DNA of 64,000 nt from Anaerolineae bacterium (lineage in GTDB: Bacteria > Chloroflexota > Anaerolineae > CG2-30-64-16). How positions within the stretch are numbered: the stretch's first letter is position 1; each line of letters opens with the position of its first letter. The stretch lies in assembly GCA_034432655.1 (NCBI GenBank), contig DAOUBP010000038.1, positions 660 to 64,659 of the forward strand, given 5' to 3'. The position numbers and the translations under genes were made by a program. A model generated the notes under the pieces. The model was given only the letters and a program-made list of their open reading frames with translations. It was not told the origin of the DNA and made no database searches. Positions 2,747-19,914 of this stretch are shown here, in pieces.

Positions 2747-4054
2747 ATGCCAGCACAAGTCATCACCCTTCCCTGGGGCAATGAAGAGTTGCGATTGGAG
2801 CTGCCGCCGGCCTGGCAGGTGCAGGGGGTCCTGACCCCGGCCGCCTTGCCCGGGGTGCCTGATCCGATGGCCGAGGTGCAGCGCAGCCTGGCCGCGCCCA
2901 TCGGTGCCCCGCGGCTGAGCCAGCTGGCGCGGCCCGGCGCGCGCGTGGCGCTGGTGGTGGACGACGGCAGCCGGCCCACGCCGGTCTCGCTGATCGCGCC
3001 GGCCGTCATCGCGGAGCTCGAGGCCGCCGGGGTCCGTCGTGAGGATATCACGGTTGTCCCGGCCCTGGGCCTGCATCGCCCCATGACAGAGGCGGAGCTG
3101 GCCGAGCGGCTGGGGTCTGAGGCCTTCGCCGGGCTGCAGTGGGAGAACCACGATTGCGATGACGCCAGCCGTTTGGTCGAACTGGGCACGACGACGCGCG
3201 GGACGCCGGTGCTGCTCAATCGAACCGTGGCCGGGGCCGACCTGGTGGTGTCCATCGGCTGCATCGAGCCGCATATCATCGCCAGCTTCGGCGGCGGTTA
3301 CAAGAACCTGGTGCCAGGGGTGGCCGGCCGCATCACGGTGGCCCATAACCACGGCTTGAACTGCACCCCTGACACTTTCAACAACGTGGGCCAGCCTATC
3401 GAGCGCAACCCCATGCGGCTCGACCTGGAAGAGGCCGGCCGCATGCTCGTGCCGCCGGTGTTCATCGTCAACGCAGTGATCAATGACCGCCGCGAGATCG
3501 TGCAGATGGTGGCCGGGGACGGCGTGGCAGCCCACCGGGAGGGGGTCAGGACCAGCGCTGCGATCTTTGGGGTCAAGGTGCCGGGCGAGGCGGATGTGGT
3601 CATCACCAACTCGCGGCCGATGGACCAGGACTTACGCCAGGGGGTGAAGGCGCTGGCGAACACGGTGCGGGCGATGAAGCCGGGCGGTGTGCTGATCACG
3701 CTGGTGCGCGCGGACGAGGGGGTTGGCGTCTTCGGGCTGGCCAACCGCAAGCTGATGAGCCGGGGGATGCTCAGCGTCGTCGCACCGCTCTTGATCCGGC
3801 TGGTCCCCAAGCTGAAGCTGAAAGGCATGGGGGAGGAAGACCGTTTCTTCCTGTACTTTGCGCTCCAGGCGATGCGCCGCGGCCTGCTGCTGATGTACGC
3901 GCCGACTATCCCGGCTGCCACCAAAGAGAACCTGCCGTTCGTGCTGTTCCGAGACACGCCCGGCGCGGCCGTGGCCGAGGCTGCCAGACGTTTCCCCGCA
4001 AAGGCGGACGTCCTGGTCTTCCCCTACGGCGGCAGCACGTATCCGATCTTGTGA
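2747..4054 (+). CDS. LarA-like nickel-dependent lactate racemase family protein (DUF2088)
   Basis: ORF-track ORF 2360-4054 trimmed to ATG 2747 with RBS gaaaggagagagg (earlier part overlaps FAH gene); motifs VALVVDDGSRPTP, ITVVPALGLHRPMT, HIIASFGGGYKNLVPG. Confidence 0.75.
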   Translation: MPAQVITLPWGNEELRLELPPAWQVQGVLTPAALPGVPDPMAEVQRSLAAPIGAPRLSQLARPGARVALVVDDGSRPTPVSLIAPAVIAELEAAGVRREDITVVPALGLHRPMTEAELAERLGSEAFAGLQWENHDCDDASRLVELGTTTRGTPVLLNRTVAGADLVVSIGCIEPHIIASFGGGYKNLVPGVAGRITVAHNHGLNCTPDTFNNVGQPIERNPMRLDLEEAGRMLVPPVFIVNAVINDRREIVQMVAGDGVAAHREGVRTSAAIFGVKVPGEADVVITNSRPMDQDLRQGVKALANTVRAMKPGGVLITLVRADEGVGVFGLANRKLMSRGMLSVVAPLLIRLVPKLKLKGMGEEDRFFLYFALQAMRRGLLLMYAPTIPAATKENLPFVLFRDTPGAAVAEAARRFPAKADVLVFPYGGSTYPIL

Positions 4055-4090: not shown

Positions 4091-5239
4091 CTACAAGGGG
4101 CATGTGAGCCGGCGCAGCGCGTCGGCCAGCACCTCGACCCCGCGCAGCCATTCGGCGATTTCCACGTGCTCCTCCGGCGTGTGGTCCAGGCTGCTGTCGC
4201 CGGGGCCATACGCCAGGATGGGGCAGTTCCAGACCGGGCCGACCACGTTCATGTCCGAGGTGCCGGTTTTGAGCAGGAAGTTGGGCGCGCCGCCCTGGCC
4301 CCGCACCGCTGCGACGAAGGCGCGCACCAGGGGCGTATTCTTCTCCGCCCGGTAGGCACGTTCTTCGCCGCTGAACCGGAATGTGCCGTTGCCATCCACG
4401 CTCACCAACAGCCGCTTGAAGGTCTCCGGTGTCACGCTCTCCGGCAAGCGGAACCCCATGCGCATCTCGGCGGTCTCCAACAAACCGTCGTCGCTGGAGG
4501 CAAAGTGTCGCAGCGACGGCTGCACCTGCTCCCAGACCCGTTCCCGGCCGGTATTCAGCTCCTCGACCAGCTCCTGCACCCGCCGCCAGTAGGCGAAGGC
4601 CATCTCCGGCGCGCTGGCGGCCGGCCCGGCTGTGTGGCTCATTAGGCGCTGGAACTCCACATCGGCCAGCAGACGGCCCTTGTAGCCCAGCGCCACACGC
4701 TGCCAGCCGGTCGGCTCGCCGATCACCACCATGTCCGGCTTGCGCCGCCGCGCCAGATGGCGCGCGCCTTTCGAGGTCGCGGCCTCTTCTTCTACCGCGC
4801 CGGCGATCACGATGCGCCAGCCGGGCTGCGGGCCCACCAGCGCCGCGGCCGTGGCGAACGCGGCCAGCGGCCCCTTTGCGTCCACCGCGCCGCGGCCGTA
4901 CAACCGCCCGCCGCGTTCGTGGACACGCGGGAACCCGCGCACCGTGTCAATGTGGCCGAGGAGGAGGAGTTCTTGCGGATTGCGTACTGCATACTGCGTA
5001 TTGCGTACTACGGATTGTGGATTGGGGATTGGTTCAGCTTCCAGCTTCCAGTTTCCAGCGCCCAGCACGCCGACCGCGTTGCCGGCCGCGTCGCGGTGGG
5101 CGGAGAAGCCGTGGTCGCGCAGCCAGGCGACCAGGTGCTCGACGGCCGGCCGTTCCTCGCCGGAGGGGGAGGGGATTTCGAGCAGTTCGCGCAACAGGCG
5201 CAGGCCGCTGGCGATGATGGCTTGGGAGGATTCCCTCAT
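4091..5239 (-). CDS. lysK: M20-family deacylase: [LysW]-lysine hydrolase LysK / acetylornithine deacetylase-like; contains an in-frame 28-aa insertion encoded by 12 tandem heptamers
   Basis: LLLGHIDTV, GRGAVDAKG, context at the end of the LysW-AAA cluster; start at MRESSQ with RBS gaggtg; insertion [27 protein letters not shown] = DNA 4975-5062. Confidence 0.7.
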   Translation of the reverse strand: MRESSQAIIASGLRLLRELLEIPSPSGEERPAVEHLVAWLRDHGFSAHRDAAGNAVGVLGAGNWKLEAEPIPNPQSVVRNTQYAVRNPQELLLLGHIDTVRGFPRVHERGGRLYGRGAVDAKGPLAAFATAAALVGPQPGWRIVIAGAVEEEAATSKGARHLARRRKPDMVVIGEPTGWQRVALGYKGRLLADVEFQRLMSHTAGPAASAPEMAFAYWRRVQELVEELNTGRERVWEQVQPSLRHFASSDDGLLETAEMRMGFRLPESVTPETFKRLLVSVDGNGTFRFSGEERAYRAEKNTPLVRAFVAAVRGQGGAPNFLLKTGTSDMNVVGPVWNCPILAYGPGDSSLDHTPEEHVEIAEWLRGVEVLADALRRLTCPL

Positions 5240-5322
5240 GGTACACCTCAGTTTTGGTCGTTGACTGGAGTCGAGGCTGTGCGAAGCCTCCTTTAGGATT
5301 AGCCGGTCTCTCTGTCCGGGCG

Positions 5323-6399
5323 TCAAAGCGCCTGAAGGCTCGATTCCGTTGTTCTCCTGATGATTTCATCCGTTACCTGATCCGTGCTGGCCCGTCCGCT
5401 CAGGTCGGGTGTGACGATGCCGGCAGCGACCGTGGCTTGCACCGCATGGCGGACGCGCGTCGCGGCCGCGGCCTGTCCCAGGTGATCCAGCAGCAGCGCG
5501 GCCGACAGGATCGCGCCGATCGGGTTGGCGATGCCGCGGCCGGCGATGTCGGGCGCGCTGCCGTGCACCGGCTCGAACACCGCGACCTGTCCTGCGCCCA
5601 CATTGGCCGACGGCGCTACGCCCAGCCCGCCCGCCAGCCCCGCGGCCAGGTCCGACAGGATGTCGCCGAAGAGGTTGGTGGTGACGATGACGTCGAAGCG
5701 GGTCGGGTCCTTCGCCAGCCACATCGCGGCCGCGTCCACCAGCAGCTCCTCGACCTGCACGTCCGGGTAGTCCCGCGCGACGGCCAGGCAGCTTTCCCGG
5801 AACAGGCCGTCGGTGAGTTTGAGGACGTTGGCTTTGTGGATAACGGTAACTTGGGGCCTGGTAGATTGGTAATTTGGTTCCAGAGATTGAACATTTGTGG
5901 TTTGCAGTTTGCGGTTTGCTCGTTGCCGTGCTTGCTCAAACGCCACTCTTGCGATGCGCTCGCTGGCCTGGCGGGTGATAACGCGCTCGACGATGGCGGT
6001 ATCGGGGTCCTCCCAACGCTCGCGGCCGCTGTAGAGGCCCTCGGTGTTTTCGCGCACGATGAGCAGGTCAATCGGCCGGCCGCCCGGCACCAATTGGACG
6101 GTCGGCCGCAGGTTGGCGTAGAGGTCGAAGTGGCGGCGCAGGGCCAGGATGGGGGAGCGGTAGCCTGCCACCTCTCCTGTTGTTGGCGACTGTGTAGCGC
6201 CGAACAGCGTCCCATCGGCCGCGGCCACGGCGCGCAGGGTCTCGTCGGGCAGGGCTGTGCCGCGGCGGAGGAAGCAGTCCCAGCCGGCATCGGCCTCGAC
6301 GAAGCGCACATCCGGCAGCACGGCCGCCAGCACGCGCGCCGCCGCGGGGATCACCTCCCGGCCGACGCCGTCGCCGGGGATCAGACAGATCGTTGGCAT
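5323..6399 (-). CDS. homoisocitrate / 3-isopropylmalate dehydrogenase family (beta-decarboxylating dehydrogenase), with in-frame repeat-encoded insertion
   Basis: [48 protein letters not shown]; ~24-aa insert [23 protein letters not shown] between ARQR and [10 protein letters not shown] encoded by heptamers ~5838-5925. Confidence 0.85.
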
Positions 6400-6466
6400 A
6401 GAGTCTTCGCTTTCAAAATGCTCATAGATTCCGGAACTCACCTGATCACGTATCACGCACCACGCC

Positions 6467-8506
6467 TCACGCCTCACGTCTCAACATCGCCAACAGCCCG
6501 CCCGCGTCCAAGATCGCCGCGACCGACGCGGAGAACGGCGGGAACGGGAATTCGCCGGCCGCGCAGGTCACAACGCCGCGGCCCAGGTCAATGCTGATGT
6601 GTGCACCGGGTTGGATAGCTGCAACCGCCTCGGGGCAGACGATGGGGAGGAGGCCGTTGTTGACAGCGTTTCGGAAGTAGATCCTTGCGAAGGACGCCGC
6701 AATGATAACCCGAATCCCCGCCGCGCGCAAACAGGTGACGGCCTGCTCACGACTGGAGCCGCAGCCGAAGTTGCGGCCGGCTACGATGATGTCGCCCGGT
6801 TGAACATTGGCCGCGAAGGTCGGGTCGAGGTCCTCCAGCGCGTGGCGGGCCATCTCGGCTTCTTCCTTGATGGTGTAGGTGTATTTGCCCGGGAAGATGA
6901 CGTCGGTGTTGACATCGTCGCCGTAGACCCAGGCGCGGCCGGAGAGGATGTTGGATGTTCGATGTTCGATGGACGATGGAGCGCGTTGCGTATTGCGTAT
7001 TGCGTACTTCGTATCTGGGGTAACCTTTTGTTCTGGAATCGAGGCTTTAGCCGGTTTCGTGGGCGAAGCAGTAGACCGGCTCACATCTCGATCCCAGTCG
7101 TCTTGATTCGGAATCGAGGCTTTAGCCGGTTTGGTGGATGAAGCATCTGACCGGCTAAGGCCTCGAGTCCAGTCGCGCAATTCCTCCATGTACGGGATCC
7201 GCCCCAGGGCCGCGCTGGCGGCGACGACCGCAGGGCTGGCCAGGTAGATCCGGGCGTCGGGGTTGCCCATGCGGCCGCGGAAGTTGCGGTTGGCGGTGCT
7301 GATGACGGTCTCGCCCGCGGCGGGGATGCCCAGGTGGTTGCCCATGCACGGGCCGCAGCCGGGCGTGCCGATCAGCGCGCCGGCTTCGAGGAAGGTCTGG
7401 ATGTAGCCCGCGGCCAGCGCATCCTGCAGCACCTGACTCGATGCCGGGACAACCAGCAACCGCGTGCCCGCGGCAACGCGGCGCACCCGTCCGTCCGGCC
7501 CGCGCAGTGCCGCGGCGGCCTCTGCCAGGTCCTCCAGCCGGCCGTTGGTGCAGGTGCCGATGAAGGCCTGGTGGACCGGGGTGCCCGCCACCTCGGACAG
7601 CGGCACGACGTTTGCGGGGTTGTGGGGCACGGCGACGACCGGCTCCAACGCGCTCAGGTCCACGGTATGACGGGCGATGTAGGGCGCGTCCGGGTCGGGG
7701 TAGAGCGCGAGCGCAGCAAGGTTCATAGGGACGACTTCAGTCGTCCCGCCGCGCTCGGAACGGCTGAAGCCGTTACGACGAACTGCCAACCGTTCCGCCA
7801 GCCACGCGAACACCGCCTCGTCCGGTTCCAGGTACGCGCTTTTCGCGCCCGATTCGGCCAGCAGGTTGGGGAGCACCATCCGGCTCTCGATGCTCAGCGC
7901 CCGCAGCCCCGGCCCGCCGATCTCGATGGCCCGGTAGATGCCCGCCTCGGGGCCGAGCAGCTTCAGCAGCCACAGGCCCAGGTCTTTGGCGGTGACTCCG
8001 GGCCGCAGGCTGCCGATCAGGTCCACGCGGATCGTCTCCGGCACGCGCAGCCAGAGCTCGCCGGTGGCCCACAGCGCGGCAACCTCGCTGCGGCCGATGC
8101 CCGCGCCGAACGCGCCCAGCCAGCCGAAGTGCGTGGTGTGGCTGTCTGCGCCCAGGATGAGCTGGCCGGGCAGCACCAGCGCCTCCTCGCTGAGCACCTG
8201 ATGGCAGATGCCCCGGCCGACGTCGAAGAAGTGCGTGATGCCCTGCTCGGCCACAAAGCGGCGCACCTCGGCGTGGTTCTGCGCGTGCTCGGCCGTGGGC
8301 GCGGGCACGGCGTGATCCAGGGTGATGGCCAGCCGCTCCGGGTAGCGCACCCGGTCGCGCCCCAGGCTGCGGAAGAGCCGGGCGATAGCTGCGGTGTTGT
8401 CGTGGCTCAGCACGATGTCGGGCCGGGCGTCCACGATCTGGCCGATGGCCGCGTGCGGCAGCCCCGCCGCGCGGGCCAGGGCTTTTTGGGCAAAAGTTTG
8501 TGACAT
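6467..8506 (-). CDS. homoaconitase / 3-isopropylmalate dehydratase large subunit and small subunit read as one ORF, joined in-frame by a ~80-aa repeat-derived linker
   Basis: N-part [15 protein letters not shown]...SHTTHFG...GTCTNGR...GCGPCMG (large subunit); C-part [19 protein letters not shown]...[11 protein letters not shown] (small subunit); no stop and no ATG/GTG/TTG start between them; linker DNA 6950-7200 = heptamers + two palindromic elements. The 40 codons upstream of ATG 8506 (to 8626) lie in a palindromic repeat and were excluded. Confidence 0.7.
6950..7034. repeat. tandem heptamers (ATGTTGG/ATGTTCG/ATGGACG... then GCGTATT/GCGTACT) inside leuC-leuD linker
   Basis: direct reading, period 7. 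Confidence 0.7.
7035..7169. repeat. two tandem copies of a ~60-bp palindromic MITE/REP-like element GGAATCGAGGCTTTAGCCGGT-N19-ACCGGCTAAGGCCTCGAGTCC (third copy at 62678-62738)
   Basis: 16-bp inverted arms; copy A right arm degenerate; lies in-frame inside the leuCD ORF. Confidence 0.7.
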
Positions 8507-8537
8507 GCAACGCCTTTCTGATTCATGCGCAGGGTCA

Positions 8538-8607
8538 GCATCCTCAGATGCGGTTTTCGGGCAAAGCCGTTCGCATCGGGGGCAAAGCCGTTCGCATCTG
8601 AGGATGC
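8538..8607. repeat. palindromic element: GCATCCTCAGATGCG ... CGCATCTGAGGATGC with internal direct repeat GCAAAGCCGTTCGCATC x2
   Basis: perfect 15-nt inverted arms; same family as 1713-1777. Confidence 0.65.
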
Positions 8608-8643
8608 TCACTCCACAATCTACCAATTTACCAGGTTACCAAC

Positions 8644-9792
8644 CTACCCATGTATCCCGTTCGCCCAATTTCGCAACAGGTTATCCACGTCGTCCAAGGT
8701 CAGGGCGCGTTCGTCGGCCAAAGCCTTGATATGCTGCGTCAGCTTCTTGACCTTGGCGTCGGTCAGCTCCAGGCCGAGCTGGTCGGCGCGGGCTTTCACC
8801 GCGTTCCAGCCGGTGAGCCGGTGTGCGATGGAGATGTAGCGGGTCAGGCCGAAGTCGTGCGGGTCCAGCGCCTCGTAGGTCTCCGGTGCGTTGAGCAGCG
8901 CCTTGGCGTGGATGCCGGCCTTGTGGGTGAACGCGCTGTAGCCGGTGATCTGGTTGTTGAACGGGATGTCCACGTTCACCATCTCGGCCACCATCATCTC
9001 CAGCGCCCGCAGCCGCTCGAGCCGGTACTTGCGCCGGGTAGCCTCCCGGTCGTAGGTGTACATGCGGGCCACGAAGCCACCCAGCGACGGGATGCCGTTG
9101 CGCTCGCCGATGCCCAGCACCGAGGTGTCAATGTGCGTGGCGCCGGCCTCCAGCGCGGTGAACGCGTTGGCGATCGCGCAGCCGGAGTCGTTGTGGCCGT
9201 GGAACTCGATGTCGCAGCGGGTCAACCGGCGTAGCGTGCCCACCAGCCGGGCGACCTGGGTCGGCGTGGCGATCCCCACCGTGTCGGCGATGCCCAGCCG
9301 GTTCACCACCCCCAGCCTGTCCACCGCCAGGTAGACCCGCAACAGCTCGGCCTCGTCGCTGCGGAAGGAATCCTCGGTGCTGAAGCGCAGTTCGATGTCG
9401 GGCGCCTGCTGGCGGATCCACGGCAGCACGTCCGCGGCCAGATCAATGATCTCGTCAATGCTCTTGCCGTGGCTGAACTGGCGCAGCTTCGACGATGTGC
9501 CGATGACCACATCCACGCCGTCCACGCCGGCATCCAACGCGACCGCGGCGTCCTCCTTGTGGCAGCGGATGTGGGTCAGGACGCGGGCGCGCAGCCCCAA
9601 CCGGGCGACCGTGCGCAGGTCGGCCAGGCTGCCCGGCGACGCCTGCGGCGAGGTCAGTTCCAGGTATTCCACCCCGAACTCGTCCAGCGCCCGCGCGATG
9701 CGGATCTTCTGCTCGGTGGTGAACGCCGCGTTGATGAACTGTTCCCCTTCGCGAAGGGTAGAGTCTATGATGGCGTAGTTGTCCAGGGACAT
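8644..9792 (-). CDS. homocitrate synthase (LeuA/NifV-type; first step of the AAA lysine pathway)
   Basis: [42 protein letters not shown]; cluster context. Confidence 0.85.
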
Positions 9793-9799
9793 GGGTTGC

Positions 9800-9993
9800 T
9801 CCGTGATGCGTATTGCGTACTGCGTACTGCGTATTGCGTACTGCGTACTACGTATTGCGTATTGCGTACTGCGTGATGCATGATGCGTTAATTCGCTGAT
9901 TCGTCATTCGTCCTTCGTCCTTCGTCCTTCGTCCTTCGTCCTTCGTCATTCGTCCTTCGTCATTCGTCCTTCGTCCTTCGTCATTCGTCCTTC
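9800..9993. repeat. intergenic tandem arrays: CGTATTG/CGTACTG heptamers (9805-9885) then CGTCCTT/CGTCATT heptamers (9895-9993)
   Basis: direct reading, period 7, two families. Confidence 0.8.
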
Positions 9994-9994
9994 G

Positions 9995-11212
9995 TCAAGT
10001 AAGTGCAGTTTCGATCGCCTCTGCCACCCGCTCCAAATCCTCCTCCTCGATCACCAGCGGCGGGAGGAGGCGGAGGACGGTGGCGCCGGCGGGGAGGGCG
10101 AGGACGCCCAGGGCTTGCAGCCGCTGCAGGATGGGCGTGACTTTGACCTTCAGCTCGATGCCGATCAGCAGGCCCAGGCCACGCACCTCGCGGATGAGCG
10201 GCGAGTTGATGGCGCGCAGGCGGGCTTGCATGTGCTCGCCCAGCCGCGCGGCGCGTTGGGGGAGGATTTCGGTTGTAATCGTATCAATCGCCGCCAGCGC
10301 GGCCGCGCAGGCCAGCGGGTTGCCGCCGAAGGTGCTGCCGTGGGTCATGGGGCGAATGCCGGCGACACGCGGCCCGATCAGGCAGGCGCCCATCGGCAGG
10401 CCGCCAGCCATGGACTTGGCGACCGTCATCAGATCGGGAGCCAGGCCATAGTGCTCGCAGGCGAACAGCCGGCCCGTGCGACCGAAGCCGGTTTGGATCT
10501 CGTCCAGGATCAGCAGCGCGCCCCGCTCCCAGCAGACGCGCTGCGCCGTCTCCAGGAACCCGGGCGTCGCCGGGTGGACCCCGCCTTCGCCCTGCACGAC
10601 TTCCAGCAGCACCGCGGCCGTCTGGTCGGTCACCGCCCGTTCCAGCGCCGCACTGTCGTTGAACGGGATGTGGCTGAAGCCGGGCACCAGCGGCTCGAAG
10701 GGCTGGCGGTACTCGCGGTTCCACGTCGCCGACAGCGCGCCCAGAGTGCGACCGTGGAAGCCGCGCATGGCCGCCACGATCCCGCTGCGGCCGGTGCTCA
10801 GCCGGGCGAACTTGATGGCCGCCTCCACCGCCTCCGCACCGGAGTTGCACAGGAACGCGCGCTCCAGCCCGGCCGGCGCGATCGCGGTCAGGCGGGCCAG
10901 CAGCTCGGCGCGGCGGTCGTTGTAGAAGATCTCCGGGCAGGAGATGAGGGTGGCTGCCTGCCCGGCGATGGCCGCGACCACTGCCGGGTGCGCGTGGCCC
11001 AGGTTGGCCGCGCCCTGCCCGCCCACGCAGTCAATGTACTCCCGGCCCTCCGCGTCCCAGACCCGCGCGCCCTGTCCTCGCACGATCGCCAGCGGCCGCT
11101 TGGGGTAAACGCCGGAGGTGTGGCGCGATTCGAGGGAGAGGATGGTAGATTGGTAGGTTGGTAGATTGGTAGATTGGTAGGTTGGTGGGTGGATGGGACG
11201 AGTGTCAGTCAT
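9995..11212 (-). CDS. lysJ: class-III aminotransferase: [LysW]-aminoadipate semialdehyde / acetylornithine aminotransferase
   Basis: [45 protein letters not shown]; N-terminal ~30 aa ([22 protein letters not shown]) is encoded by the GGTAGRTT octamer array so the true start is uncertain. Confidence 0.8.
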
Positions 11213-11310
11213 GGGAGACCTCCCCCAATTCACCAAGTCCCAATCTACCAGTTCCTACTTTACCAACCCCCAATTTACCAACTTCCACTGTGCCAATCAC
11301 AGTCCCCTCC
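11140..11310. repeat. octamer array GGTAGATT/GGTAGGTT (11140-11195) and an inverted copy (11225-11310) spanning the lysZ stop / lysJ start junction
   Basis: direct reading; the two arrays are reverse complements and can pair. Confidence 0.65.
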
Positions 11311-12098
11311 CCGGCCAGCGCGGCGCGCACCGGGTGCGGGCGACGGGAGTCGGCCAGGATGACGGCGGGGACGCCGCCGGCCAGGGCCTCGCGGGCGGCC
11401 AGCAGCTTCTTCTTCATGCGGCCCTGGGCCAGGCCTTCGACCGCGTCCAGGTGAGAGGGCGCCACGTGGCGCACCAGGCTGCTTTCGTCCGGGAAGTTCG
11501 CCAGCAGGCCGGGCACGTTGCTGAGGATGATCAGCGCGCCGGCCCCTAGCGCGACCGCCAGCGCCGCCGCGGCCCGGTCGCCGTCCACGTTGAGCCGCTC
11601 GCCCTGCGCGCCCAACGCCAGCGGCGCGATGACCGGGGTGTAGCCGGCGCCCAGCATCAGCCGCAGCAGGTCGCCGTTGGCCGTTTCGAGCTGGCCGGTG
11701 TAGTCGTCACGGATGATCCGCTGCCGGCCGTTTTCCACCGCGCGCACCGCGTCCTTCCGCCGGGCCACCAGCAGCCGGCCGTCCACGCCCGACAGCCCGA
11801 CCGCGTTGCAGCCCAGCGCCTGGAGCCGGGCCACCAGCGCCTTGTTCACCTGCCCGGCCGCGGCCGCCACGTAGAGCTCCAGCATCTCCGGGTCGGTGTA
11901 GCGGCTGACGTGGCCCGAGGGCGAGGTGATGTGCCGCACCGGCACGCCCGCTCGCGCGGCCAGCGCATCGGCCGCGGCCGACGTGCCGTGCACCAGCACG
12001 ACCGGCCAACCCTCGGCCGCCAGCCCCGCGCTATCTGCCAGCACGGCGTCGGCATCCACCCCCGCCGCGCCGCCGAGTTTGATGATGATGGGATACAT
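11205..12098 (-). CDS. lysZ: [LysW]-aminoadipate kinase / acetylglutamate kinase family
   Basis: MYPIIIKLGG...VLVHGTSAA...; C-terminal tail [26 protein letters not shown] is repeat-encoded and overlaps lysJ start. Confidence 0.8.
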   Translation of the reverse strand: MYPIIIKLGGAAGVDADAVLADSAGLAAEGWPVVLVHGTSAAADALAARAGVPVRHITSPSGHVSRYTDPEMLELYVAAAAGQVNKALVARLQALGCNAVGLSGVDGRLLVARRKDAVRAVENGRQRIIRDDYTGQLETANGDLLRLMLGAGYTPVIAPLALGAQGERLNVDGDRAAAALAVALGAGALIILSNVPGLLANFPDESSLVRHVAPSHLDAVEGLAQGRMKKKLLAAREALAGGVPAVILADSRRPHPVRAALAGEGTVIGTVEVGKLGVGKVGTGRLGLGELGEVSHD

Positions 12099-12197
12099 GA
12101 GTGCTCCTGTTGCGTATTGCGTACTGCGTATTGCGTACTGCGTATCTTCTCCAGGCGGTACGCAGTACGAAGTACGAAGTACGAAGTACGGAGTATG
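12099..12197. repeat. inverted heptamer arrays (GCGTATTGCGTACTG... vs GTACGCAGTACGAAGTACG...) forming a long hairpin between lysY stop and lysZ start
   Basis: direct reading. Confidence 0.7.
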
Positions 12198-13253
12198 CTA
12201 TATCGGGTGCAGTCCTGTAGACTTCAACCCAGCCGTTTCGTCCAGCCCGCACATCAGGTTCATGCACTGCACCGCGCTGCCGGCCGCGCCTTTGCCCAGG
12301 TTATCAATGGCGGCCAGGGCCACCAGGCGGCCGGTGGCCGGCTCCAGCTCCCAGCCGACGTCGGCCAGGTTCGTGCCGGCCAGCAGCTTCGGCTCCGGGT
12401 GGCGGTAGATGCCGCCCCGCTCGTGGACGATGCGCACGAACGGCTCCTGGCCGTAGGCCGCGCGGTAGGCCCGCCAGAGGTCTTTGTCGCTCAGGCCGGG
12501 CTGCACCCACGCGTGCGCGGTCGCCAGCACCCCGCGCACCAGCTCGATCGAGGTCACCGACAGATGCACATCTCCGATCCCCAACACCTGCCGCACCTCG
12601 GCCTGGTGGCGGTGGCCGGTGGGCGCGAAGGAGCGCACCGCGCCGGCCCGCTCCGGATGATGCGACGCCGCGTTCGCGGCCGCGCCCCCCTCGGACGACC
12701 CTGCCTTCACGTCCACGATCACCGGTCGGTCGGCCCGCAGCAGCCCGGCCCGGACCAGCGGCAGCAGCGCCAGGACGGCGGCGGTCGCGTTGCAGCCGAC
12801 GCCGGAAGCATATTGCGTACTGCGTATTGCGTCGCGGTTGGCTTCGGGGAGGCCGTAGGTGAAGCGTGAGAGCCAGTCGGGGGCGGCGTGGGGTTCGCCG
12901 TAGGTGGCTTGATAGGTTTGCGGGTCGGAGAGGCGGAAGTCGGCGGAGAGGTCAATGATGCGGGGGGCGAGGCGGGCAAAGTGCTCGATGCGGCGCTGGG
13001 CCTGGCCGTGGGGCAGCGCCAGGAACAGCACGTCGCACGGGGCCAGCTCGCTGAGGGCCGTGAAGCGTATGGGCGGGATCCGGCCGCCCACGGGCCGCAG
13101 GTTGGGGTGCAGGCTGTGCACGTACTCGCCCGCGTGCGACTCGGAGGTCACCTGCGCCAGCTCGACGGCCGGGTGGCCCAACAGCAGCCGGATCAGCTCG
13201 CCCCCGCCGTAGCCGGAGCCGCCGACGATGGAGACGCGGAGGGGGGCGGTCAT
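12198..13253 (-). CDS. lysY: N-acetyl-gamma-glutamyl-phosphate reductase family: [LysW]-aminoadipyl-phosphate reductase
   Basis: [32 protein letters not shown] (active-site Cys region), NLGKGAAG; in-frame RSTQYA insertion from heptamers at ~12805-12840. Confidence 0.85.
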
Positions 13254-14212
13254 GGGCGGGCCTCCGGGGTGGTATTGCGTATTGCGTATTGCGTACTGCT
13301 TGCCGTTGAATGAGCAGTTCTCTCATGGTCTACGCAGTATGCAGTACGCAGTACGTACTCTGCCACCCGCGCCGGGATATCCACCCCCGTCGTGTGAATG
13401 CTGTTGCGGAACTCCATGGTGTGGTTCACCTCGTTGACCAGGAAGCCGCGATCGGGGTCTTCCAGCACGTCAATCGCGAGGACGCCGCCGCCCACGGCTG
13501 CCGCGGCCCGGCGGCAGAGGTCGTCCAGCTCCGGCGTCACCGGGCAGTTGGAGGCCTGGCCCCCGCGCGCGGTGTTGGTGATCCAGTGCGTCGAGCCCCG
13601 GTAGATCGCCGCGATGGTCTCGTCGCCCACGACGAAGGCGCGGATGTCGCGGCCGGGCTTGCGGATGTATTCCTGGATGTAGAAGATGCTGTGCAGGTAG
13701 TTGCCCAGCACCTCCTTGTGTTCCAGGATCGCCTCGGCCGCGTCCCGGTCGTTGATGCGGGCCAGCAGTCGGCCCCACGAGCCGACCAGCGGCTTGAGCA
13801 CGACCGGGTAGCCCAGTTCTTCGATGGCTTGCAAGGCCGCTTCGGGGGTGAAGGCCACGCGCGTGCGAGGCTGCGGGATGCCGGCCTCGGCCAGCGCCGC
13901 GCTGGTCAGCAGCTTGTCCCAGCACGTGGCCGCGGTGCGATAGGTGTTGACCGTGGGGATCCCGGCCGCCTGGAGCAGCCGCAGCGCATAGATGCCGCGT
14001 GCCGCGCTGACGGAGCGCTCGAGGACGATGTCGGCGCGGATGTTGTAGGGCGAGATTCCATCTCGCCCCACCGGCAGCACCAGCTCATCATCGTTTACCA
14101 GCTGCACCGTCGCGCCGGTGGCTTCCAGCGCGGCCAGCAGCAGCTTCTCCTCCACGCGGATGCGGGAGACGATCATCGCGACGGTGATCTGGGAGTGACC
14201 GTTCTTGCTCAT
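13250..14212 (-). CDS. lysX: RimK-type ATP-grasp ligase: alpha-aminoadipate--LysW ligase
   Basis: ATP-grasp motifs ([27 protein letters not shown]); start MSKNGHS 4 nt overlapped with lysW stop; C-terminal ~30 aa ([27 protein letters not shown]) repeat-encoded. Confidence 0.8.
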
Positions 14213-14379
14213 TCGCCCCAATCCTCCGCCTCTTCCGGCGCCAGGTCGAGGACCAGTGGGTCCAGCGACACCACCTCCAGCTCCGCGCCGCACGCCGGGC
14301 ACGGCACGATCTCCCCCTGCAACGGGTCGCGCAGGGTCACAGGACCTTCACATTCTGGACAGAGTGCTTCGCGTGACAT
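14209..14379 (-). CDS. lysW: LysW amino-group carrier protein (zinc-ribbon, C-terminal EDWGE)
   Basis: [16 protein letters not shown]...[10 protein letters not shown]...EEAEDWGE; perfect RBS aggagg 8 nt upstream; ORF-track ORF (to 14517) extended upstream through repeats by a TTG start. Confidence 0.85.
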
Positions 14380-14394
14380 GAGTGCCTCCTGATG

Positions 14395-14510
14395 ATGTGG
14401 GTTCGTACTGCGTATTGCGTACTGCGTATTGCGTGATTCGCCATTCGTTGATTCGTTGATTCGCTGATTCGCTGATTCGCCATTCGCTGATTCGTTGATT
14501 CGCCATTTCG
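14395..14510. repeat. 5' UTR of lysW built from heptamers (CGTACTG/CGTATTG) and ~12 octamers TGATTCG(C/T)
   Basis: direct reading. Confidence 0.75.
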
Positions 14511-14511
14511 C

Positions 14512-14556
14512 CCCCAAACAAAAAGCCCCCTCCCGCCAGACTGGTCGGGAAGGGGC
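14512..14556 (-). terminator. intrinsic terminator 2 (11-bp GC stem, 10-nt loop, UUUUUGUUUGGGGG) immediately upstream of lysW
   Basis: minus strand: GCCCCUUCCCG-accagucugg-CGGGAGGGGGC-UUUUUGUUUG. Confidence 0.6.
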
Positions 14557-14580
14557 CTGCGATGGGCTTCAGGGTGCGCG

Positions 14581-14652
14581 CTAGCGGCCTATCCAGACAC
14601 AGTCTGGCAAGCTGGTGACCTGCTTCTTAGCGCGCTTGAAGTTGAGATTCAT
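14581..14652 (-). CDS. candidate leader peptide 2: MNLNFKRAKKQVTSLPDCVWIGR (3 AAG Lys codons in 5)
   Basis: ATG with GGTGA 4 nt upstream; stop 22 nt before terminator 2; not in ORF track (below length cutoff). Confidence 0.3.
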   Translation of the reverse strand: MNLNFKRAKKQVTSLPDCVWIGR

Positions 14653-14662
14653 GGTTTCACCG

Positions 14663-14704
14663 CAAACAAAAAGCCCTGCCTGGCATCTTGGGCCTGGCAG
14701 GGCT
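14663..14704 (-). terminator. intrinsic terminator 1 (AGCCCUGCCAGGC-ccaagau-GCCAGGCAGGGCU + UUUUUGUUUG)
   Basis: 12/13 paired stem followed by U-tract on minus strand. Confidence 0.6.
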
Positions 14705-14727
14705 GCTGTGCTGAGTTGCGTCGCTTC

Positions 14728-14811
14728 TTACCCCAAGCACAAACGACCGTCCCTGCAGGCCAGGGCGGGCTTCTTGGACTTGGAGCACTTGGAGAGCGAC
14801 ATAGAGTTCAT
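14728..14811 (-). CDS. candidate leader peptide 1: MNSMSLSKCSKSKKPALACRDGRLCLG (4 AAG Lys codons in 7)
   Basis: small ORF downstream of consensus promoter, stop ~25 nt before terminator 1. Confidence 0.3.
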   Translation of the reverse strand: MNSMSLSKCSKSKKPALACRDGRLCLG

Positions 14812-14841
14812 CAAGGTTGTCTTTGCCTCACGCTGGGCGGT

Positions 14842-14869
14842 AGTATAACTAAAGTGCGCGATCTGTCAA
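14842..14869 (-). promoter_or_regulatory. sigma-70-type promoter TTGACA-N16-TATACT driving the leader/terminator region and lys operon
   Basis: minus strand TTGACAgatcgcgcactttagtTATACT. Confidence 0.5.
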
Positions 14870-14907
14870 ATTTCAAGTGTGGCCAACAAGACGATCAAAA
14901 CATCAGG

Positions 14908-15003
14908 CGGGGGCGGATGGGAGTCGAACCCACCTTGGACGCTTCCTAGGCGCCCATCACCGGTTTTGAAGACCGGGGCCGCCACCGGACGACAACCACC
15001 CCC
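14908..15003 (-). tRNA. selC: tRNA-Sec (selenocysteine), anticodon UCA, 96 nt, 8/5 acceptor/T-stem architecture with long variable arm
   Basis: GGGGGTGG-TT-GTCGTCCGGTGGCGGC-C-CCGGT-CUUCAAA-ACCGG-[26-nt variable arm]-GTGGG-TTCGACT-CCCAT-CCGCCCCC-G; aligns block-for-block with E. coli selC (TCGTCTCCGGTG..., CTTCAAA, TTCGACTCC). Confidence 0.85.
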
Positions 15004-15010
15004 ACACATG

Positions 15011-15039
15011 ATGATACACGACTTCGGTCAGATGGTCAA
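15011..15039 (-). promoter_or_regulatory. promoter for tRNA-Sec: TTGACC-N17-TATCAT, TSS ~7 nt upstream of tRNA 5' end
   Basis: minus strand TTGACCatctgaccgaagtcgtgTATCATcatgtgtG(+1). Confidence 0.55.
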
Positions 15040-15069
15040 AATGGTTGAAGTCGGCGCGTGTTCGTGGTA

Positions 15070-15222
15070 GAATAAATAAAATACTGCGTACTACTTACTG
15101 CGTATTGAGTGCTTCATGCGATCGCTCGCGCAATGTTTGTACGGAGTATGCAGTACGGAGTATGCAGTACGGAGTATGTAGTACGGAGTATGCAATACGG
15201 AGTATGTAGTACGGAGTTCGCC
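15070..15222. repeat. tandem GTACGGAGTATGCA(G/A) 14-mer (2x7) repeats upstream of AmrS gene
   Basis: direct reading. Confidence 0.75.
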
Positions 15223-16245
15223 ATGTCCCACCCCGCCATTCTCTGGGAACGACTGGGGCCCGACGACCTGCGGGTCCGCTGCAATCTGTGCGCGCACCAT
15301 TGTGTGATCGCGCCGGGCAAATTGGGGGTCTGCTGTGTGCGGGAGAACGTGGACGGCGAGTTGGTGACGCTGGTCTACGGTCGGGCGATTTCGCAACATG
15401 TAGATCCCATCGAGAAGAAACCGCTGTTCCATTTCCAGCCGGGCAGCAAGTCATACTCCATCGCCACGGTCGGCTGTAACTTTCAGTGTGCCTTCTGTCA
15501 GAACTGGGAGATCTCGCAGATGCCGCGTGAGGAGGGCGCCGTCATGGGGCGCTTCGTTGCCCCGGCTGAGGTCGCGCGCGCGGCCCGGCAGGCCGGCTGC
15601 GCTTCGGTGGCCTACACCTACACGGAGCCGACTATCTACGCCGAGTACGCGCTGGACTGTGCGCGGGAGGCGCAGAAATTGGGGCTGCGTAACGTGTTCG
15701 TCAGCAACGGCTATATGACGCCGGCGTTACTTGAGTTGATGGCGGGCCTGATTGACGGCATCAATGTTGACCTGAAGGCCGGCCGGGGCGAGTTCTACCG
15801 CAAGATATCGGGCGCGGGGTTGAAGGCCGTGTTGGAGAACCTGGTGCGCATCCACAAGTTGGGCATCTGGCTGGAGGTGACGACCCTGGTGATCCCCGGC
15901 CTCAATGACTCAGATGAGGAGCTGCGTTGGGCCGCGCGTTATCTGTACGACAACCTGGGGCCTGATGTGCCGTGGCATATCAGCCGCTTTTACCCGCACT
16001 ACAAGATGAGCGATGTGCCGCCCACCCCTGCCAAGACGCTCGAGCGTGCCTGGCAGATCGGCCGGGACGTGGGCCTGCACTACGTCTATGTGGGCAACCT
16101 GCCCGGCCATCACGCCGAGAGCACCTTCTGCCCTGGCTGCGGCGGCCTGGTCATCGAGCGCAGCGGCTACTGGCTCGGCCGGCGCAACCTGCGGGACGGC
16201 AAGTGCACTGCGTGCGGGACGGTCATCGCCGGCGTGGAGATGTGA
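15223..16245 (+). CDS. AmmeMemoRadiSam-system radical SAM enzyme (PflA-like)
   Basis: CNLCAHHCVI...CxxxC..C; VGCNFQCAFCQNWEIS; C-terminal CPGCGG...CTACG; adjacent AMMECR1 gene. Confidence 0.8.
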   Translation: MSHPAILWERLGPDDLRVRCNLCAHHCVIAPGKLGVCCVRENVDGELVTLVYGRAISQHVDPIEKKPLFHFQPGSKSYSIATVGCNFQCAFCQNWEISQMPREEGAVMGRFVAPAEVARAARQAGCASVAYTYTEPTIYAEYALDCAREAQKLGLRNVFVSNGYMTPALLELMAGLIDGINVDLKAGRGEFYRKISGAGLKAVLENLVRIHKLGIWLEVTTLVIPGLNDSDEELRWAARYLYDNLGPDVPWHISRFYPHYKMSDVPPTPAKTLERAWQIGRDVGLHYVYVGNLPGHHAESTFCPGCGGLVIERSGYWLGRRNLRDGKCTACGTVIAGVEM

Positions 16246-16294: not shown

Positions 16295-16825
16295 CTACTC
16301 GTATTTCTCAACCCGAAACCGGAACATCTCCACCGGCTCATCATCCCGCAGCCCGGCCTTGCGCCGCGCATACCACAGCTGGGTCTTCACATCGTCTATG
16401 CCCTCGATGTCCGGCAGCAGCAGGCCGCGCTGCCAGCCCCGCTGCACGATCACGCCGTAGCGCTTGGGGTCGAGTTCTGTTTCCGAAGTGATCCGCTCCG
16501 GCGGGTAAAGCACGCTTACGTCAATTTTGAGATCGTCCAGCTCTTCAGGCCGCACCGGCGGGAAGCGCGGATCGCGCGTGGCCGCGGCGATGGCGTTGTT
16601 GATCACCTCCTGCGCCAGCGATTTCTCGGTCGCGGTGATGGTGCCGATGCAACCGCGCAGCTCGCCGGTGCTTTTGGTGTGCAAAGTGACGAAGACCCCG
16701 GCCGGCTCGCCTTCGATGGGCGCCGGGGCCTCTGCTGGCTTCAGTTTTCTGCCCTCGCGCACGTAACGCTCGATGGCCGCGCGGGCCAGTTGGACGAGAG
16801 GGTGATGGGTGGGTTGGGTGGACAT
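16295..16825 (-). CDS. AMMECR1-domain protein (AmmeMemoRadiSam system protein A)
   Basis: GVFVTLHTKSTGELRGCIGTI...LLLPDIEGIDD pattern typical of AMMECR1. Confidence 0.75.
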   Translation of the reverse strand: MSTQPTHHPLVQLARAAIERYVREGRKLKPAEAPAPIEGEPAGVFVTLHTKSTGELRGCIGTITATEKSLAQEVINNAIAAATRDPRFPPVRPEELDDLKIDVSVLYPPERITSETELDPKRYGVIVQRGWQRGLLLPDIEGIDDVKTQLWYARRKAGLRDDEPVEMFRFRVEKYE

Positions 16826-18061: not shown

Positions 18062-18258
18062 GAGAACCTCCGTACCTTTACTGAATACTGCGTATTGCGT
18101 ACTGCGTATTGCGTACTGCGTATTGCGTACTAAGTATTCCAAACTGCGTGCTGTTATGCAGCTTACCTCGCAACTGCGCCATACGGAGTACGGAGCACGG
18201 ACTACGAAGTACGGACTACGGAGTACGAAGTACGGACTACGGAGTACGCAATGCGTCG
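18062..18258. repeat. heptamer arrays in both orientations between acyl-CoA DH start and CoA-transferase B stop
   Basis: direct reading. Confidence 0.7.
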
Positions 18259-19338
18259 TTATCTGATGAGCAATCCCGTCGGATCAATTTCCCTCAAGAT
18301 CCTTCGTTCCTCCTCCGTCGGCGCGGCGGTGACGGCCAGCGGCTCGGCCACCGGGATCGGGAAGCTGCTGTTGGCCTGGATCTCCTCCACGGTGACGCCG
18401 GGGTGAACGGCCAATAGATACATGGTCCTGGTCGCTTCGTCGAAGCCGTAGACGCCCAGCTGCGTGATCACCCGATAGGGGCCGGTGTTCGCCGGCAGCC
18501 CTGCGCGCTCACGTGCGCCCGGACCGGTCAGATAGCCTGGGGTGGTGATAAAGTCCAGCTTCTCGGCGAACTTACGGCGGTCCTGGCGCATGATGATGAT
18601 GGTGCGATGGCAGGCCGAGCCTACGTCATTTGCCCCGCCGCTGCCGGGCAATCGGACCGTAGGGTGCTCCCAATCGCCGATCACGGTGGTGTTGATGTTG
18701 CCGTACGGGTCAATCTGCGCGGCGCCCAGGAAGCCGTAGTCCAGATGGCCGGCCTGGGCCATGGACATCACGTCGTGCATGCTCGAGGCGGCCACAGCCT
18801 GATGGAAGGTGCGCGAATCGCCCACGGAGATGGGCAGCACCGGGATGTGGGGGCCGATGCCGCCGGCTTCGAAGATAATCAACAGGCCCGGCGCGTGGGT
18901 GCGCTGCGCCAGCATGGCGGCGATCATAGGCAGCCCTGTGCCGACGAACACTGATTTACGGTCTTCCAGCAGGTGTGCCGCGACACAGGCGAGCAGCTCG
19001 GTGGAGGAATAAGGAGACGTGGAAGCAGGGAGACGCGAAGATTCTCCGCGTCCCCGCGTCTCCGCCTCCCCGTGTCCCCGCGTCCCCGCGTCCCCGCGTC
19101 CCCACGTCTCCGCCTCCCCGTGTCCCCGCGTCTCCGCGTCCCCGTGTCCCCGCGTCTCCGCGTCCCCGTGTCCCCGCGTCCCCGCGTCCCCGTGTCCCCG
19201 CGTCTTCGCGTCTCCGCGTCCCCGCATCCCCGCGTCCCCGTGTCCCCGCGTCTCCGCCTCCCCGCGTCCCCGCGTCTCCGCCTCCCCGCGTCCCCGCGTC
19301 TCCGCGTCCCCGCGCGCCTGCATCATCGGATCCTCCAT
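18259..19338 (-). CDS. CoA-transferase subunit B (glutaconate/3-oxoacid CoA-transferase beta-like) with ~80-aa N-terminal extension encoded by the TCCCCGCG octamer array
   Basis: VFVGTGLPMIAAMLAQRTHAPGLLIIFEAGG, AQIDPYGNINTTVIGD, GSGGANDVGS; no in-frame ATG/GTG/TTG between the repeat and the conserved domain. Confidence 0.7.
   Translation of the reverse strand: MEDPMMQARGDAETRGRGEAETRGRGEAETRGHGDAGMRGRGDAKTRGHGDAGTRGHGDAETRGHGDAETRGHGEAETWGRGDAGTRGHGEAETRGRGESSRLPASTSPYSSTELLACVAAHLLEDRKSVFVGTGLPMIAAMLAQRTHAPGLLIIFEAGGIGPHIPVLPISVGDSRTFHQAVAASSMHDVMSMAQAGHLDYGFLGAAQIDPYGNINTTVIGDWEHPTVRLPGSGGANDVGSACHRTIIIMRQDRRKFAEKLDFITTPGYLTGPGARERAGLPANTGPYRVITQLGVYGFDEATRTMYLLAVHPGVTVEEIQANSSFPIPVAEPLAVTAAPTEEERRILREIDPTGLLIR
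19016..19320. repeat. ~37 tandem octamers TC(C/T)CCG(C/T)G
   Basis: direct reading, period 8; translates as (R/G)GDAETRG in CoA-transferase B frame. Confidence 0.85.
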
Positions 19339-19703: not shown

Positions 19704-19912
19704 CCCTCCTCTCCGCGTCCCCGCGTCTCCGCGTCCCCGCGTCTCCGCGTCCCCGCGTCCCCGCGTCCCCGCGTCTCCGCGTCCCCGCGTCTCCGCGTCC
19801 CCGCGTCCCCGCGTCCCCGCGTCTCCGCGTCTCCGCGTCTCCACGTCCCCGCGTCTCCGCGTCTCCGCGTCCCCGCGTCCCCGTGTCTCCGCGTCTCCGC
19901 GTCTCCGCGTCT
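19704..19912. repeat. ~26 tandem octamers TC(C/T)CCGCG (same family and orientation as 19016-19320)
   Basis: direct reading. Confidence 0.85.
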
Positions 19913-19914
19913 CC

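Follow-up and report, generated by a model that had tools for sequence, protein, structure and literature searches.

A tandem pair of candidate lysine leader-peptide attenuators upstream of the lysW operon in an Anaerolineae bacterium

In a 64,000-nucleotide stretch of DNA from an Anaerolineae bacterium of the phylum Chloroflexota (contig DAOUBP010000038.1 of assembly GCA_034432655.1, positions 660 to 64,659; hereafter the window), the lysine-biosynthetic operon that begins with lysW is preceded by a leader region which, we suggest with a probability of roughly 0.75, contains two ribosome-mediated, Lys-tRNA-dependent leader-peptide attenuators in series that control this 10-kb operon. On the minus strand the elements follow one another as promoter, a first short open reading frame (ORF1), a first intrinsic terminator (T1), a second short open reading frame (ORF2), a second terminator (T2), a repeat-filled 5' untranslated region (UTR) and lysW. 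An earlier reading made from the letters alone (the sequence-only reading) had described this order of elements upstream of the lysW operon and proposed ribosome-mediated attenuation; every statement it made about the sequence was right and all of its positions were matched, and the proposal is now backed by conserved Lys codons, conserved terminators and co-varying alternative helices.

Related loci were gathered with a LysX probe, from one genome per species and from metagenomes. The 160 loci obtained all come from Chloroflexota-like metagenome-assembled genomes (MAGs), labelled Anaerolineae, Chloroflexia or Caldilineales; the best LysX matches are 75–85% identical, and none of the loci is from the window's own species. 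Members of the closest clade have the two-unit leader (L001-L005, L007-L009, L025, L082, L084, L085, L087, L091, L093 and L094), and across 16 distinct orthologous sequences per unit the promoter, the in-frame start, the Lys codons, the position of the stop and the terminator are all kept. This is the conservation of mini-ORFs and Lys codons in related genomes on which the sequence-only reading had made its proposal depend.

Layout and alternative structures of the leader

The leader has a sigma-70-type promoter (14842..14869, minus strand), with TTGACA at 14869-14864, a 16-nt spacer and TATACT at 14847-14842. It matches 11 of 12 consensus positions, as near to consensus as had been claimed, and is one of only three promoter-like sites within 12 kb; of the 10 relatives whose sequence extends far enough upstream, 9 have TTGAC[A/T] with TATAAT or TATACT equally far from ORF1. 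Transcription would start about 7 nt past the -10 element at 14842, and a start near 14835, within 14836-14834, is more likely than the one at 14841 that had been put forward.

ORF1 (14728..14811, minus strand) comprises 27 codons and a stop and encodes MNSMSLSKCSKSKKPALACRDGRLCLG, with a second in-frame ATG at 14802. Its putative regulatory codons (14770..14790, minus strand) are four AAG Lys codons at 14790, 14781, 14775 and 14772, in the pattern K-x-x-K-x-K-K. ORF2 (14581..14652, minus strand), of 23 codons and a stop, encodes MNLNFKRAKKQVTSLPDCVWIGR; GGUGA stands 5 nt before its ATG, and its orthologues mostly have GAGG or AGGAG 5–9 nt before the ATG. Its putative regulatory codons (14623..14637, minus strand) are AAG at 14637, CGC (Arg) at 14634, and AAG at 14628 and 14625, reading K-R-A-K-K. 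Both frames thus have the length and the numbers of Lys codons, four and three, first ascribed to them, and both stop codons end 24 nt ahead of their own terminator stem, where about 22–25 nt had been given.

Both terminators are strong, as had been said of them, each with a GC stem and a T-tract. T1 (14663..14703, minus strand) has its stem at 14703-14673, formed by GCCCTGCCAGGC and GCCAGGCAGGGC around the loop CCAAGAU, and a U-tract UUUUUGUUUG (DNA TTTTTGTTTG) at 14672-14663; the stem of T2 (14515..14556, minus strand) spans 14556-14525 and is followed by an identical U-tract at 14524-14515, and T2 is kept in all orthologues. With energies taken from RNAfold, the hairpins alone reach -21.7 kcal/mol (T1) and -26.8 kcal/mol (T2). 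Over 337 nt, the leader folds with a z-score of -3.6 relative to dinucleotide shuffles. A simple terminator scan (perfect short stem, loop of at most 8 nt) picked up neither T1 nor T2; as its stem and loop rules do not fit these hairpins, the miss is no evidence against them.

A scan of the window on both strands gives three small ORFs in which 5 codons include at least 3 Lys, along with 12 strong hairpin-plus-U-tract sites; there are only two ORF-plus-terminator units, which are the two units of the lysW leader. Lys accounts for 15% of the codons of ORF1 (4/27) and 13% of those of ORF2 (3/23), versus 2.5% in neighbouring proteins. In the 160 related loci (820 kb, both strands), 41 units of a Lys-cluster ORF and a terminator were found, 36 of them on the sense strand no more than 500 nt before lysW and one further (L053) directly before lysX; in the region upstream of lysW, 29 of 133 loci have a Lys-cluster ORF in sense orientation versus 6 of 133 in antisense orientation. 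The pairing of a Lys-rich ORF with a terminator upstream of lysW is not due to chance.

In the minimum free energy (MFE) fold of the free RNA, each Lys-codon region is held in a long protector hairpin and the terminator is formed. The protector of unit 1, an anti-antiterminator (14731..14787, minus strand), pairs the Lys-codon region CUCCAAGUCCAAG with GUGCUUGGGG and has an inner hairpin, CCCUGG...CAGGG; across 16 sequences its helix shows 82% pairing and includes compensatory changes such as that of CCAAGUGC/GUGCUUGG to CCAAGCGC/GCGCUUGG. The segment GGCCUGCAGGG (14751..14761, minus strand), which begins 11 nt past the last Lys codon of ORF1, is complementary to the 5' arm of T1 at 14702-14691 (CCCUGCCAGGCC). 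The duplex of the two, 11 bp with one bulge, is computed at -22.6 kcal/mol versus -24.8 kcal/mol for the arms of the terminator. In a MAFFT alignment 87% of the cells of its core helix are paired, with three compensatory pairs; the T1 helix itself is 88% paired and has six pairs changed on both sides. By this modelling, unit 1 also has an antiterminator, equivalent to that of unit 2, which the sequence-only reading did not describe.

In unit 2 the protector (14576..14635, minus strand), likewise present in the MFE fold, has the base GCGCGCU/AGCGCGC and the tip CCAGAC-ugu-GUCUGG; its helices are 82–94% paired, the pair at alignment columns 39:51 changes from AU to GC in three sequences, and in most relatives the ORF2 stop codon sits in the 3' arm of the tip. 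The 5' strand of the candidate antiterminator, CUUGCCAGACUG (14600..14611, minus strand), has two possible partners, the local GUCUGG or CAGUCUGGCGGG at 14543-14532, which is the loop of T2 together with the start of its 3' arm; the latter pairing has an energy of -21.2 kcal/mol. This helix is 91% paired among the orthologues, with AU changed to GC in four sequences and UA to CG in three. An inverted repeat in ORF2 overlapping the T2 loop sequence had been pointed out before, and both are present, as CCAGAC-tgt-GTCTGG and CCAGTCTGG. The alternative pairing then suspected, of CCAGAC with the GTCTGG of the T2 loop, ranks first among the upstream pairings of T2 in 13 of 15 relatives, and its strands co-vary: for the ORF2 arm, its local partner and the loop of T2, most copies have CCAGAC/GUCUGG/GUCUGG, L009 has CCGGAC/GUCCGG/GUCCGG, and both L025 and L094 have CCGGAC/GUUCGG/GUUCGG.

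Mutually exclusive antiterminator and terminator structures, which the sequence-only reading had expected RNA folding to reveal, were found for both units. When the window RNA was cut short of a complete terminator, with 30 nt around a Lys codon masked as covered by a ribosome, the protector gave way to the antiterminator in the predicted fold of both units. In a search of all windows in the 150–170 nt upstream of each terminator, the strongest partner of the T1 5' arm was the antiterminator 1 segment in 16 of 16 orthologues, 7–11 nt past the last Lys codon, and the strongest partner of T2 was the antiterminator 2 segment in 13 of 15, 25–29 nt past the first Lys codon. These partners have energies of -14 to -27 kcal/mol versus medians of -3 to -10 kcal/mol in other windows, and slid controls for the antiterminator pair counts drop to 25–48% paired. 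Compensatory changes thus back all three kinds of helix, protector, terminator and antiterminator.

We suggest that the leader would work as follows. When Lys-tRNA is plentiful, a ribosome on either ORF would proceed to the stop codon, 24 nt ahead of the terminator stem; the segment 3' of the Lys codons would be covered by the ribosome or refolded in the protector, and the terminator would form, so that with ample lysine RNA polymerase would halt at 14663 (T1) or 14515 (T2). When Lys-tRNA is scarce, a ribosome stalled on the Lys codons would melt the protector and free the segment downstream; the 5' arm of T1 would be taken up by GGCCUGCAGGG in unit 1, and the loop and 3' arm of T2 by CUUGCCAGACUG in unit 2. 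Since the freed segment would pair before the terminator is complete, read-through would result; and since a transcript must clear both checkpoints, repression would multiply and the response to lysine would be steeper than that of a single attenuator. In this scheme we infer that the ORFs are translated, that ribosomes stall on them, that a kinetic competition decides the outcome and that the effects of the two units multiply.

Conservation in relatives and competing explanations

The pattern of conservation speaks for a ribosome reading Lys codons more than for a motif of RNA alone, with the two constraints entangled in that the AAG triplets also pair in the protectors. In alignment A3 the four AAG codons of ORF1 show little or no variation, and the codons between them vary non-synonymously (C/R/S at one, S/T/P/F/C/A at another). 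An in-frame ATG or GTG stands 3–15 codons ahead of the Lys cluster in all 16 ORF1 orthologues; the N-terminal parts of the ORFs vary in length and sequence, yet the in-frame start is always kept. In ORF2 (alignment A4) neither the first and last AAG nor the CG of the Arg codon varies. The last Lys codon lies 36–42 nt from the stop in most copies, and the stop 22–34 nt from the terminator stem. In the window and in L001 a 2-nt difference in the ORF2 hairpin loop places the stop two codons away from its usual position; the frame past the Lys codons is less constrained, and therefore the C-terminal peptide appears to count less than the RNA.

Other arrangements also occur among the related loci. 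Unit 1 stands singly in L096 and probably in L088, and a unit-2-like leader with fewer Lys codons stands alone in L114, L116 and L151, which makes the unit-2 type the more widespread. L130 has tandem leaders with FKKAKKF and FKKSKKP (MITLGSMFKKAKKF... and MMTLFVVEFKKSKKP..., at about 1020-1320) and L062 has tandem leaders with IKKSKKP and IKKNKKG (...IKKSKKP... and MFGCSIKKNKKG..., at about 3440-3770), each leader with a terminator of its own, and L053 carries the Lys cluster VKKAKK. These three loci have no nucleotide similarity to the units of the window and share with them the design of start, Lys cluster, stop and terminator; the tandem design in L130 and L062, compared with that in the window, may have arisen, or diverged beyond recognition, more than once. 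Covariance models of the two units gave no further strong copies in the window or elsewhere in the related loci.

Several observations weigh against attenuation by translating ribosomes, and most of them would fit an attenuator made of RNA only, responding to a protein or small ligand in the manner of a riboswitch, in which the AAG stretches are RNA motifs and the ORFs are incidental and untranslated. Nucleotide conservation is very high, synonymous sites included, as expected of an RNA element (for example the invariant CCCTGGCCTGCAGGGACGG), and since the AAG triplets take part in the protector helices, part of the conservation of the Lys codons could therefore stem from pairing (CCAAG/CUUGG). 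Shine-Dalgarno (SD) signals are weak, with mean energies before the ORFs of -4.7 and -4.3 kcal/mol versus a background of -3.1 kcal/mol, in a survey in which start codons were picked automatically and imperfectly and SD-like motifs were seen in most, not all, copies. Two near-identical loci, L006 and L086, keep T2 without ORF2, and a distant unit-1-like leader (L134, L061) retains the fold with an ORF that has a single Lys codon.

Such an RNA-only attenuator is nevertheless unlikely in our view. The AAG codons stay fixed while those between them change amino acid, the starts are always in frame despite length changes upstream, and the unrelated leaders of L130, L062, L053 and L114 share just an in-frame start, a Lys cluster, a stop and a terminator. 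The offset of the antiterminator strand from the Lys codons fits the footprint of a ribosome, and there is no large conserved core that might bind a ligand, the three mutually exclusive helices accounting for all of the conservation. Nor does any Rfam family match the leader: a search of 14200-15300 at permissive E-values (up to 10) gave no lysine riboswitch (RF00168) and no T-box; at the gathering score the 64-kb window yielded a single match, a selenocysteine tRNA (tRNA-Sec) gene, and no riboswitch, T-box or known leader family; and in 16 other Chloroflexota lysW loci no known RNA family, the lysine riboswitch included, was found. Riboswitches, T-boxes and known leader families were accordingly rejected as candidates for the lysW leader.

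In the loci that keep T2 without ORF2 (L006 1-311 and L086 1-318, upstream of lysW), unit 1 is intact and an unrelated GC-rich hairpin replaces ORF2 and its protector; T2 would there be an unregulated or differently regulated terminator. The distant unit-1-like leader (L134 1115-1254, L135 1116-1255 and L061 447-586) belongs to low-GC relatives, scores about 30 bits with the covariance model R2, and has a co-varying antiterminator, GGAAGGAUGGG/CCCUCCUUCC; its ORF, MLTLFAKPFAPRPNSPSPGRMGCVVLRV, has one Lys and five Pro codons. It may sense a changed signal or have lost codon sensing.

Three further points against ribosome-mediated attenuation concern the folding evidence. There are few compensatory events, and they trace to a small number of lineages (L025/L094, L009 and L003/L007). 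Full-length MFE folds contain the terminator under every ribosome mask, and therefore the proposed switch must work kinetically, as attenuators of this type all do. Pair probabilities computed at equilibrium for the orthologues, by a method that cannot penalise helices spanning a bound ribosome, separate the ribosome states only in part: the probability that the 5' arm of the terminator is engaged upstream is, for unit 1, 0.45 in the free RNA, 0.81 with a stall at the first Lys codon, 0.54 with a stall at the last and 0.69 with the ribosome at the stop, and, for unit 2, 0.70 free, 0.73 stalled and 0.43 at the stop.

A simpler explanation would take T1 and T2 as ordinary terminators of the upstream tRNA-Sec gene or of small RNA genes, and the Lys-rich ORFs as products of chance. 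The strand of the leader also carries the tRNA-Sec gene, 37 nt ahead of the -35 element, and no separate terminator for that gene is obvious. Against this, a conserved near-consensus promoter separates it from ORF1, the ORFs and their Lys codons are conserved, the units are tightly tied to lysW, and orthologous loci carry the leader without an upstream tRNA. We regard this explanation as highly improbable, and as tRNA-Sec terminators T1 and T2 were rejected, the tRNA not being syntenic with the leader in relatives.

A variant compatible with serial Lys-dependent attenuation is that the sensors are not redundant, unit 1 responding to Lys-tRNA alone and unit 2 to both Lys- and Arg-tRNA. The AAG-CGN pair is invariant in all 16 unit-2 copies, and the Arg codon survives synonymous CGC to CGG changes in L091 and L114 and is kept also in the low-GC L116. 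Enzymes of the LysW pathway are homologous to those of the arginine pathway and in some archaea are shared. With a single Arg codon, however, sensing would be weak, CGC also belongs to the GCGCGC/GCGCGC stem of the protector, and the unrelated tandem leaders of L130 and L062 have no conserved Arg; in addition, the kinase LysZ scores as a Lys-specific [LysW]-aminoadipate kinase (351 bits) and below the cut-off for the bifunctional models. We think the variant unlikely. If it were true, the LysW operon would be gated by two amino acids, which would fit a LysW pathway that in these Chloroflexota also feeds ornithine and arginine synthesis, as in some archaea.

The sequence-only reading had called the arrangement duplicated in tandem. 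Two units do lie in series; their derivation by duplication is unsupported, the conserved sequences being different. In a shuffle test the alignment of unit 1 with unit 2 gave z = 6.3 with the identical 14-nt tail GGGCTTTTTGTTTG and z = 2.8 without it, and reciprocal cross-matches between the covariance models reached 15–30 bits. What weak similarity there is lies for the most part in the tail of the terminator; the two units may have a common origin.

The lysine operon and its surroundings

Between T2 and the operon lies the lysW 5' UTR (14380..14514, minus strand), with the SD sequence AGGAGG at 14390-14385 and tandem repeats of the 8-mer TGATTCGC and the 7-mer CGTACTG at 14404-14511. The sequence-only reading had included this repeat-built UTR in its layout. 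The repeats are there as described; they are not part of the attenuator, since relatives have none, and in those relatives T2 lies only 33–74 nt from lysW.

The operon (4091..14379, minus strand) holds nine genes, lysW to lysK, of the whole α-aminoadipate (AAA)/LysW lysine pathway. In order these are lysW (14379-14209; TIGR01206, 70 bits versus a cut-off of 53), lysX (14212-13250), lysY(argC) (13253-12198), lysZ for the [LysW]-aminoadipate kinase (12098-11205), lysJ for a LysJ-type transaminase (about 11164-9995), and the genes for homocitrate synthase (HCS; 9792-8644), a fused homoaconitase large and small subunit (8626-6467), homoisocitrate dehydrogenase (6477-5323) and the [LysW]-lysine hydrolase LysK (5326-4091). 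NCBIfam matches above curated cut-offs were obtained for lysW, LysX, argC, LysZ, HCS, the hacA family and LysK. All nine genes run in one direction over 14379 to 4091, and the leader therefore precedes the complete pathway. The homoaconitase is encoded by a single ORF of 719 residues, with the large-subunit domain at residues 43-477 and the small-subunit domain at 560-717, whereas the Thermus locus has two separate genes for the subunits.

Arrays like those of the lysW UTR fill nearly every intergenic spacer between 4981 and 22523, where 21 tandem arrays of 7-nt or 8-nt units were found (for example at 9807-9996, 11143-11186, 12110-12195, 13272-13355, 14404-14511, 15139-15217 and 18089-18248), built from units of the TGCGTAC/TACGCAG family, TTCGTCC, GTACGAA, TACGGAG and TGATTCGC. 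They occupy every spacer of the lys operon as well as the lysW 5' UTR, and orthologous loci are without them. Spacer arrays of this kind recall the STRR heptamer repeats of cyanobacteria. They lengthen mechanical ORF calls, as at the N-terminus of the lysJ ORF. Two long 8-nt arrays consist of 33.6 copies of CCGCGTCC at 19046-19314 and 25.6 copies of TCTCCGCG at 19710-19914; the former overlaps the 5' end of an ORF at 18259-19338 (minus strand) and adds a repetitive 'GDAETRGH' N-terminal extension, which is probably not real coding sequence.

The tRNA-Sec gene (15003-14906, minus strand; Rfam RF01852, 71.9 bits; anticodon TCA by ARAGORN) lies directly upstream of the leader promoter and has a promoter-like site of its own, TTGACC-17-TATCAT, at 15039-15011. 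It adjoins a convergent gene pair, for an AmmeMemoRadiSam radical SAM enzyme (15109-16245, plus strand) and AmmeMemoRadiSam system protein A (16295-16825, minus strand), which has heptamer repeat arrays on its flanks.

Comparison with known attenuators

The closest precedent is in Thermus. Lys-dependent leader-peptide attenuation has reportedly been shown by experiment upstream of Thermus thermophilus hcs, and to our knowledge it is only in Thermus that leader-peptide attenuation of lysine synthesis has been demonstrated. Thermus loci (L161, L162 and L164) were found by means of the T. thermophilus homocitrate synthase sequence from PDB 2ZTJ. Upstream of hcs, as read in L162 and L164, they have TTGACA-N15-TATATC/TATACC, followed by ATG CTG GCC CGT/CTT GAG AAA AAA CTC GG. 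CGC CGG GGG ... TAG; the leader ORF encodes MLAREKKLGRRGLG (L162), which we take to be the 14-residue leader with tandem lysines of the reported system, and is followed by the terminator CCGGCCCGAG-TT-CGGGCCGG-TTTTC. The sequence-only reading had named a leader of the Thermus AAA lysine cluster as precedent, and that layout is real, with a 14-codon ORF containing KK and then one terminator upstream of hcs.

The Thermus leader and the lysW leader have in common a sigma-70-type promoter, a short ORF with adjacent Lys codons, a terminator and a biosynthetic gene, and in Thermus too the 5' arm of the GC-rich terminator (in RNA, CCGGCCCGAG-uu-CGGGCCGG-UUUUCGUUU) has a possible partner in the segment past the Lys codons, CUCGGUCGCCGGGGG. 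They differ in that Thermus has one unit and the lysW leader two; in that the Thermus ORF has 14 codons with 2 Lys (AAA AAA), whereas the Chloroflexota ORFs have 21–27 codons with 3–4 Lys (AAG); in the gene that follows, hcs in Thermus and lysW in Chloroflexota; and in that Thermus has no protector hairpin of the kind seen in the lysW leader. Neither covariance model (R1, R2) matched in L161, L162 or L164. With no sequence similarity between them, the two leaders are therefore best regarded as functional analogues, not demonstrable homologues. The Thermus loci (L161 3999-4479; L162 and L164 at about 5812-6131) carry two adjacent genes for LysW-type zinc ribbons, of about 100 and 54 residues, before lysX, and in some strains, L161 not among them, a HicA/HicB toxin-antitoxin pair lies between the hcs and homoaconitase genes.

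With the Proteobacterial attenuators trpL, hisL, leuL, thrL, pheL and ilvL, the lysW leader shares the four-segment design, in which 1:2 is the protector, 2:3 the antiterminator and 3:4 the terminator with its U-tract, the regulatory codons lying in segment 1 and the stop at a fixed short distance before the terminator. It differs from them in the amino acid concerned, in its occurrence in Chloroflexota and in having two complete attenuators in series; the antiterminator of unit 2 would moreover take up the loop and 3' arm of the terminator, and so not only a 5' arm.

The Salmonella mgtCBR leader contains two short ORFs, mgtM and mgtP, whose translation chooses between alternative stem-loops and controls transcription into the coding region (Lee and Groisman 2012, PMC3641672). 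Like it, the lysW leader has two short ORFs in one leader, each of which would govern alternative stem-loops; in contrast to it, both ORFs are Lys-clustered, each has its own canonical intrinsic terminator, and the operon makes the very amino acid that would be sensed. In Salmonella mgtM and mgtP sense differing signals, ATP in one case and proline or charged tRNA-Pro in the other, and the operon serves virulence and Mg2+ transport.

Termination switches for one signal are also known in series among riboswitches and T-boxes, examples being TPP or glycine aptamers in tandem and, in Bacillus subtilis, the triple T-box of thrZ. Such tandems, like the lysW leader, place same-signal switches one after the other and are thought to be tighter and more switch-like; the sensor in them is an aptamer or a tRNA-binding RNA, whereas in the lysW leader it would be a ribosome translating the leader ORF. 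The lysine riboswitch (L-box, RF00168) likewise controls lysine genes by premature termination in the 5' leader, and the lysW leader, unlike it, has no conserved core the size of an aptamer. In the searchable literature we found no report of a Lys leader in Chloroflexota and none of two leader-peptide attenuators for the same amino acid in series, the Salmonella mgtCBR tandem being the only one that turned up.

The lysW leader changes no general principle. If functional, it would stand for a second, independent and much better sampled family of Lys leaders, of about 25 loci, with tandem, single and sequence-unrelated tandem architectures. Annotators could then mark the region and recognise Lys-regulated operons in Chloroflexota MAGs. 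A functional leader would also be indirect evidence of coupling between transcription and translation in the largely uncultured Chloroflexota, and it would offer a natural test case of whether serial attenuation by the same signal sharpens the response, as has been proposed for tandem riboswitches.

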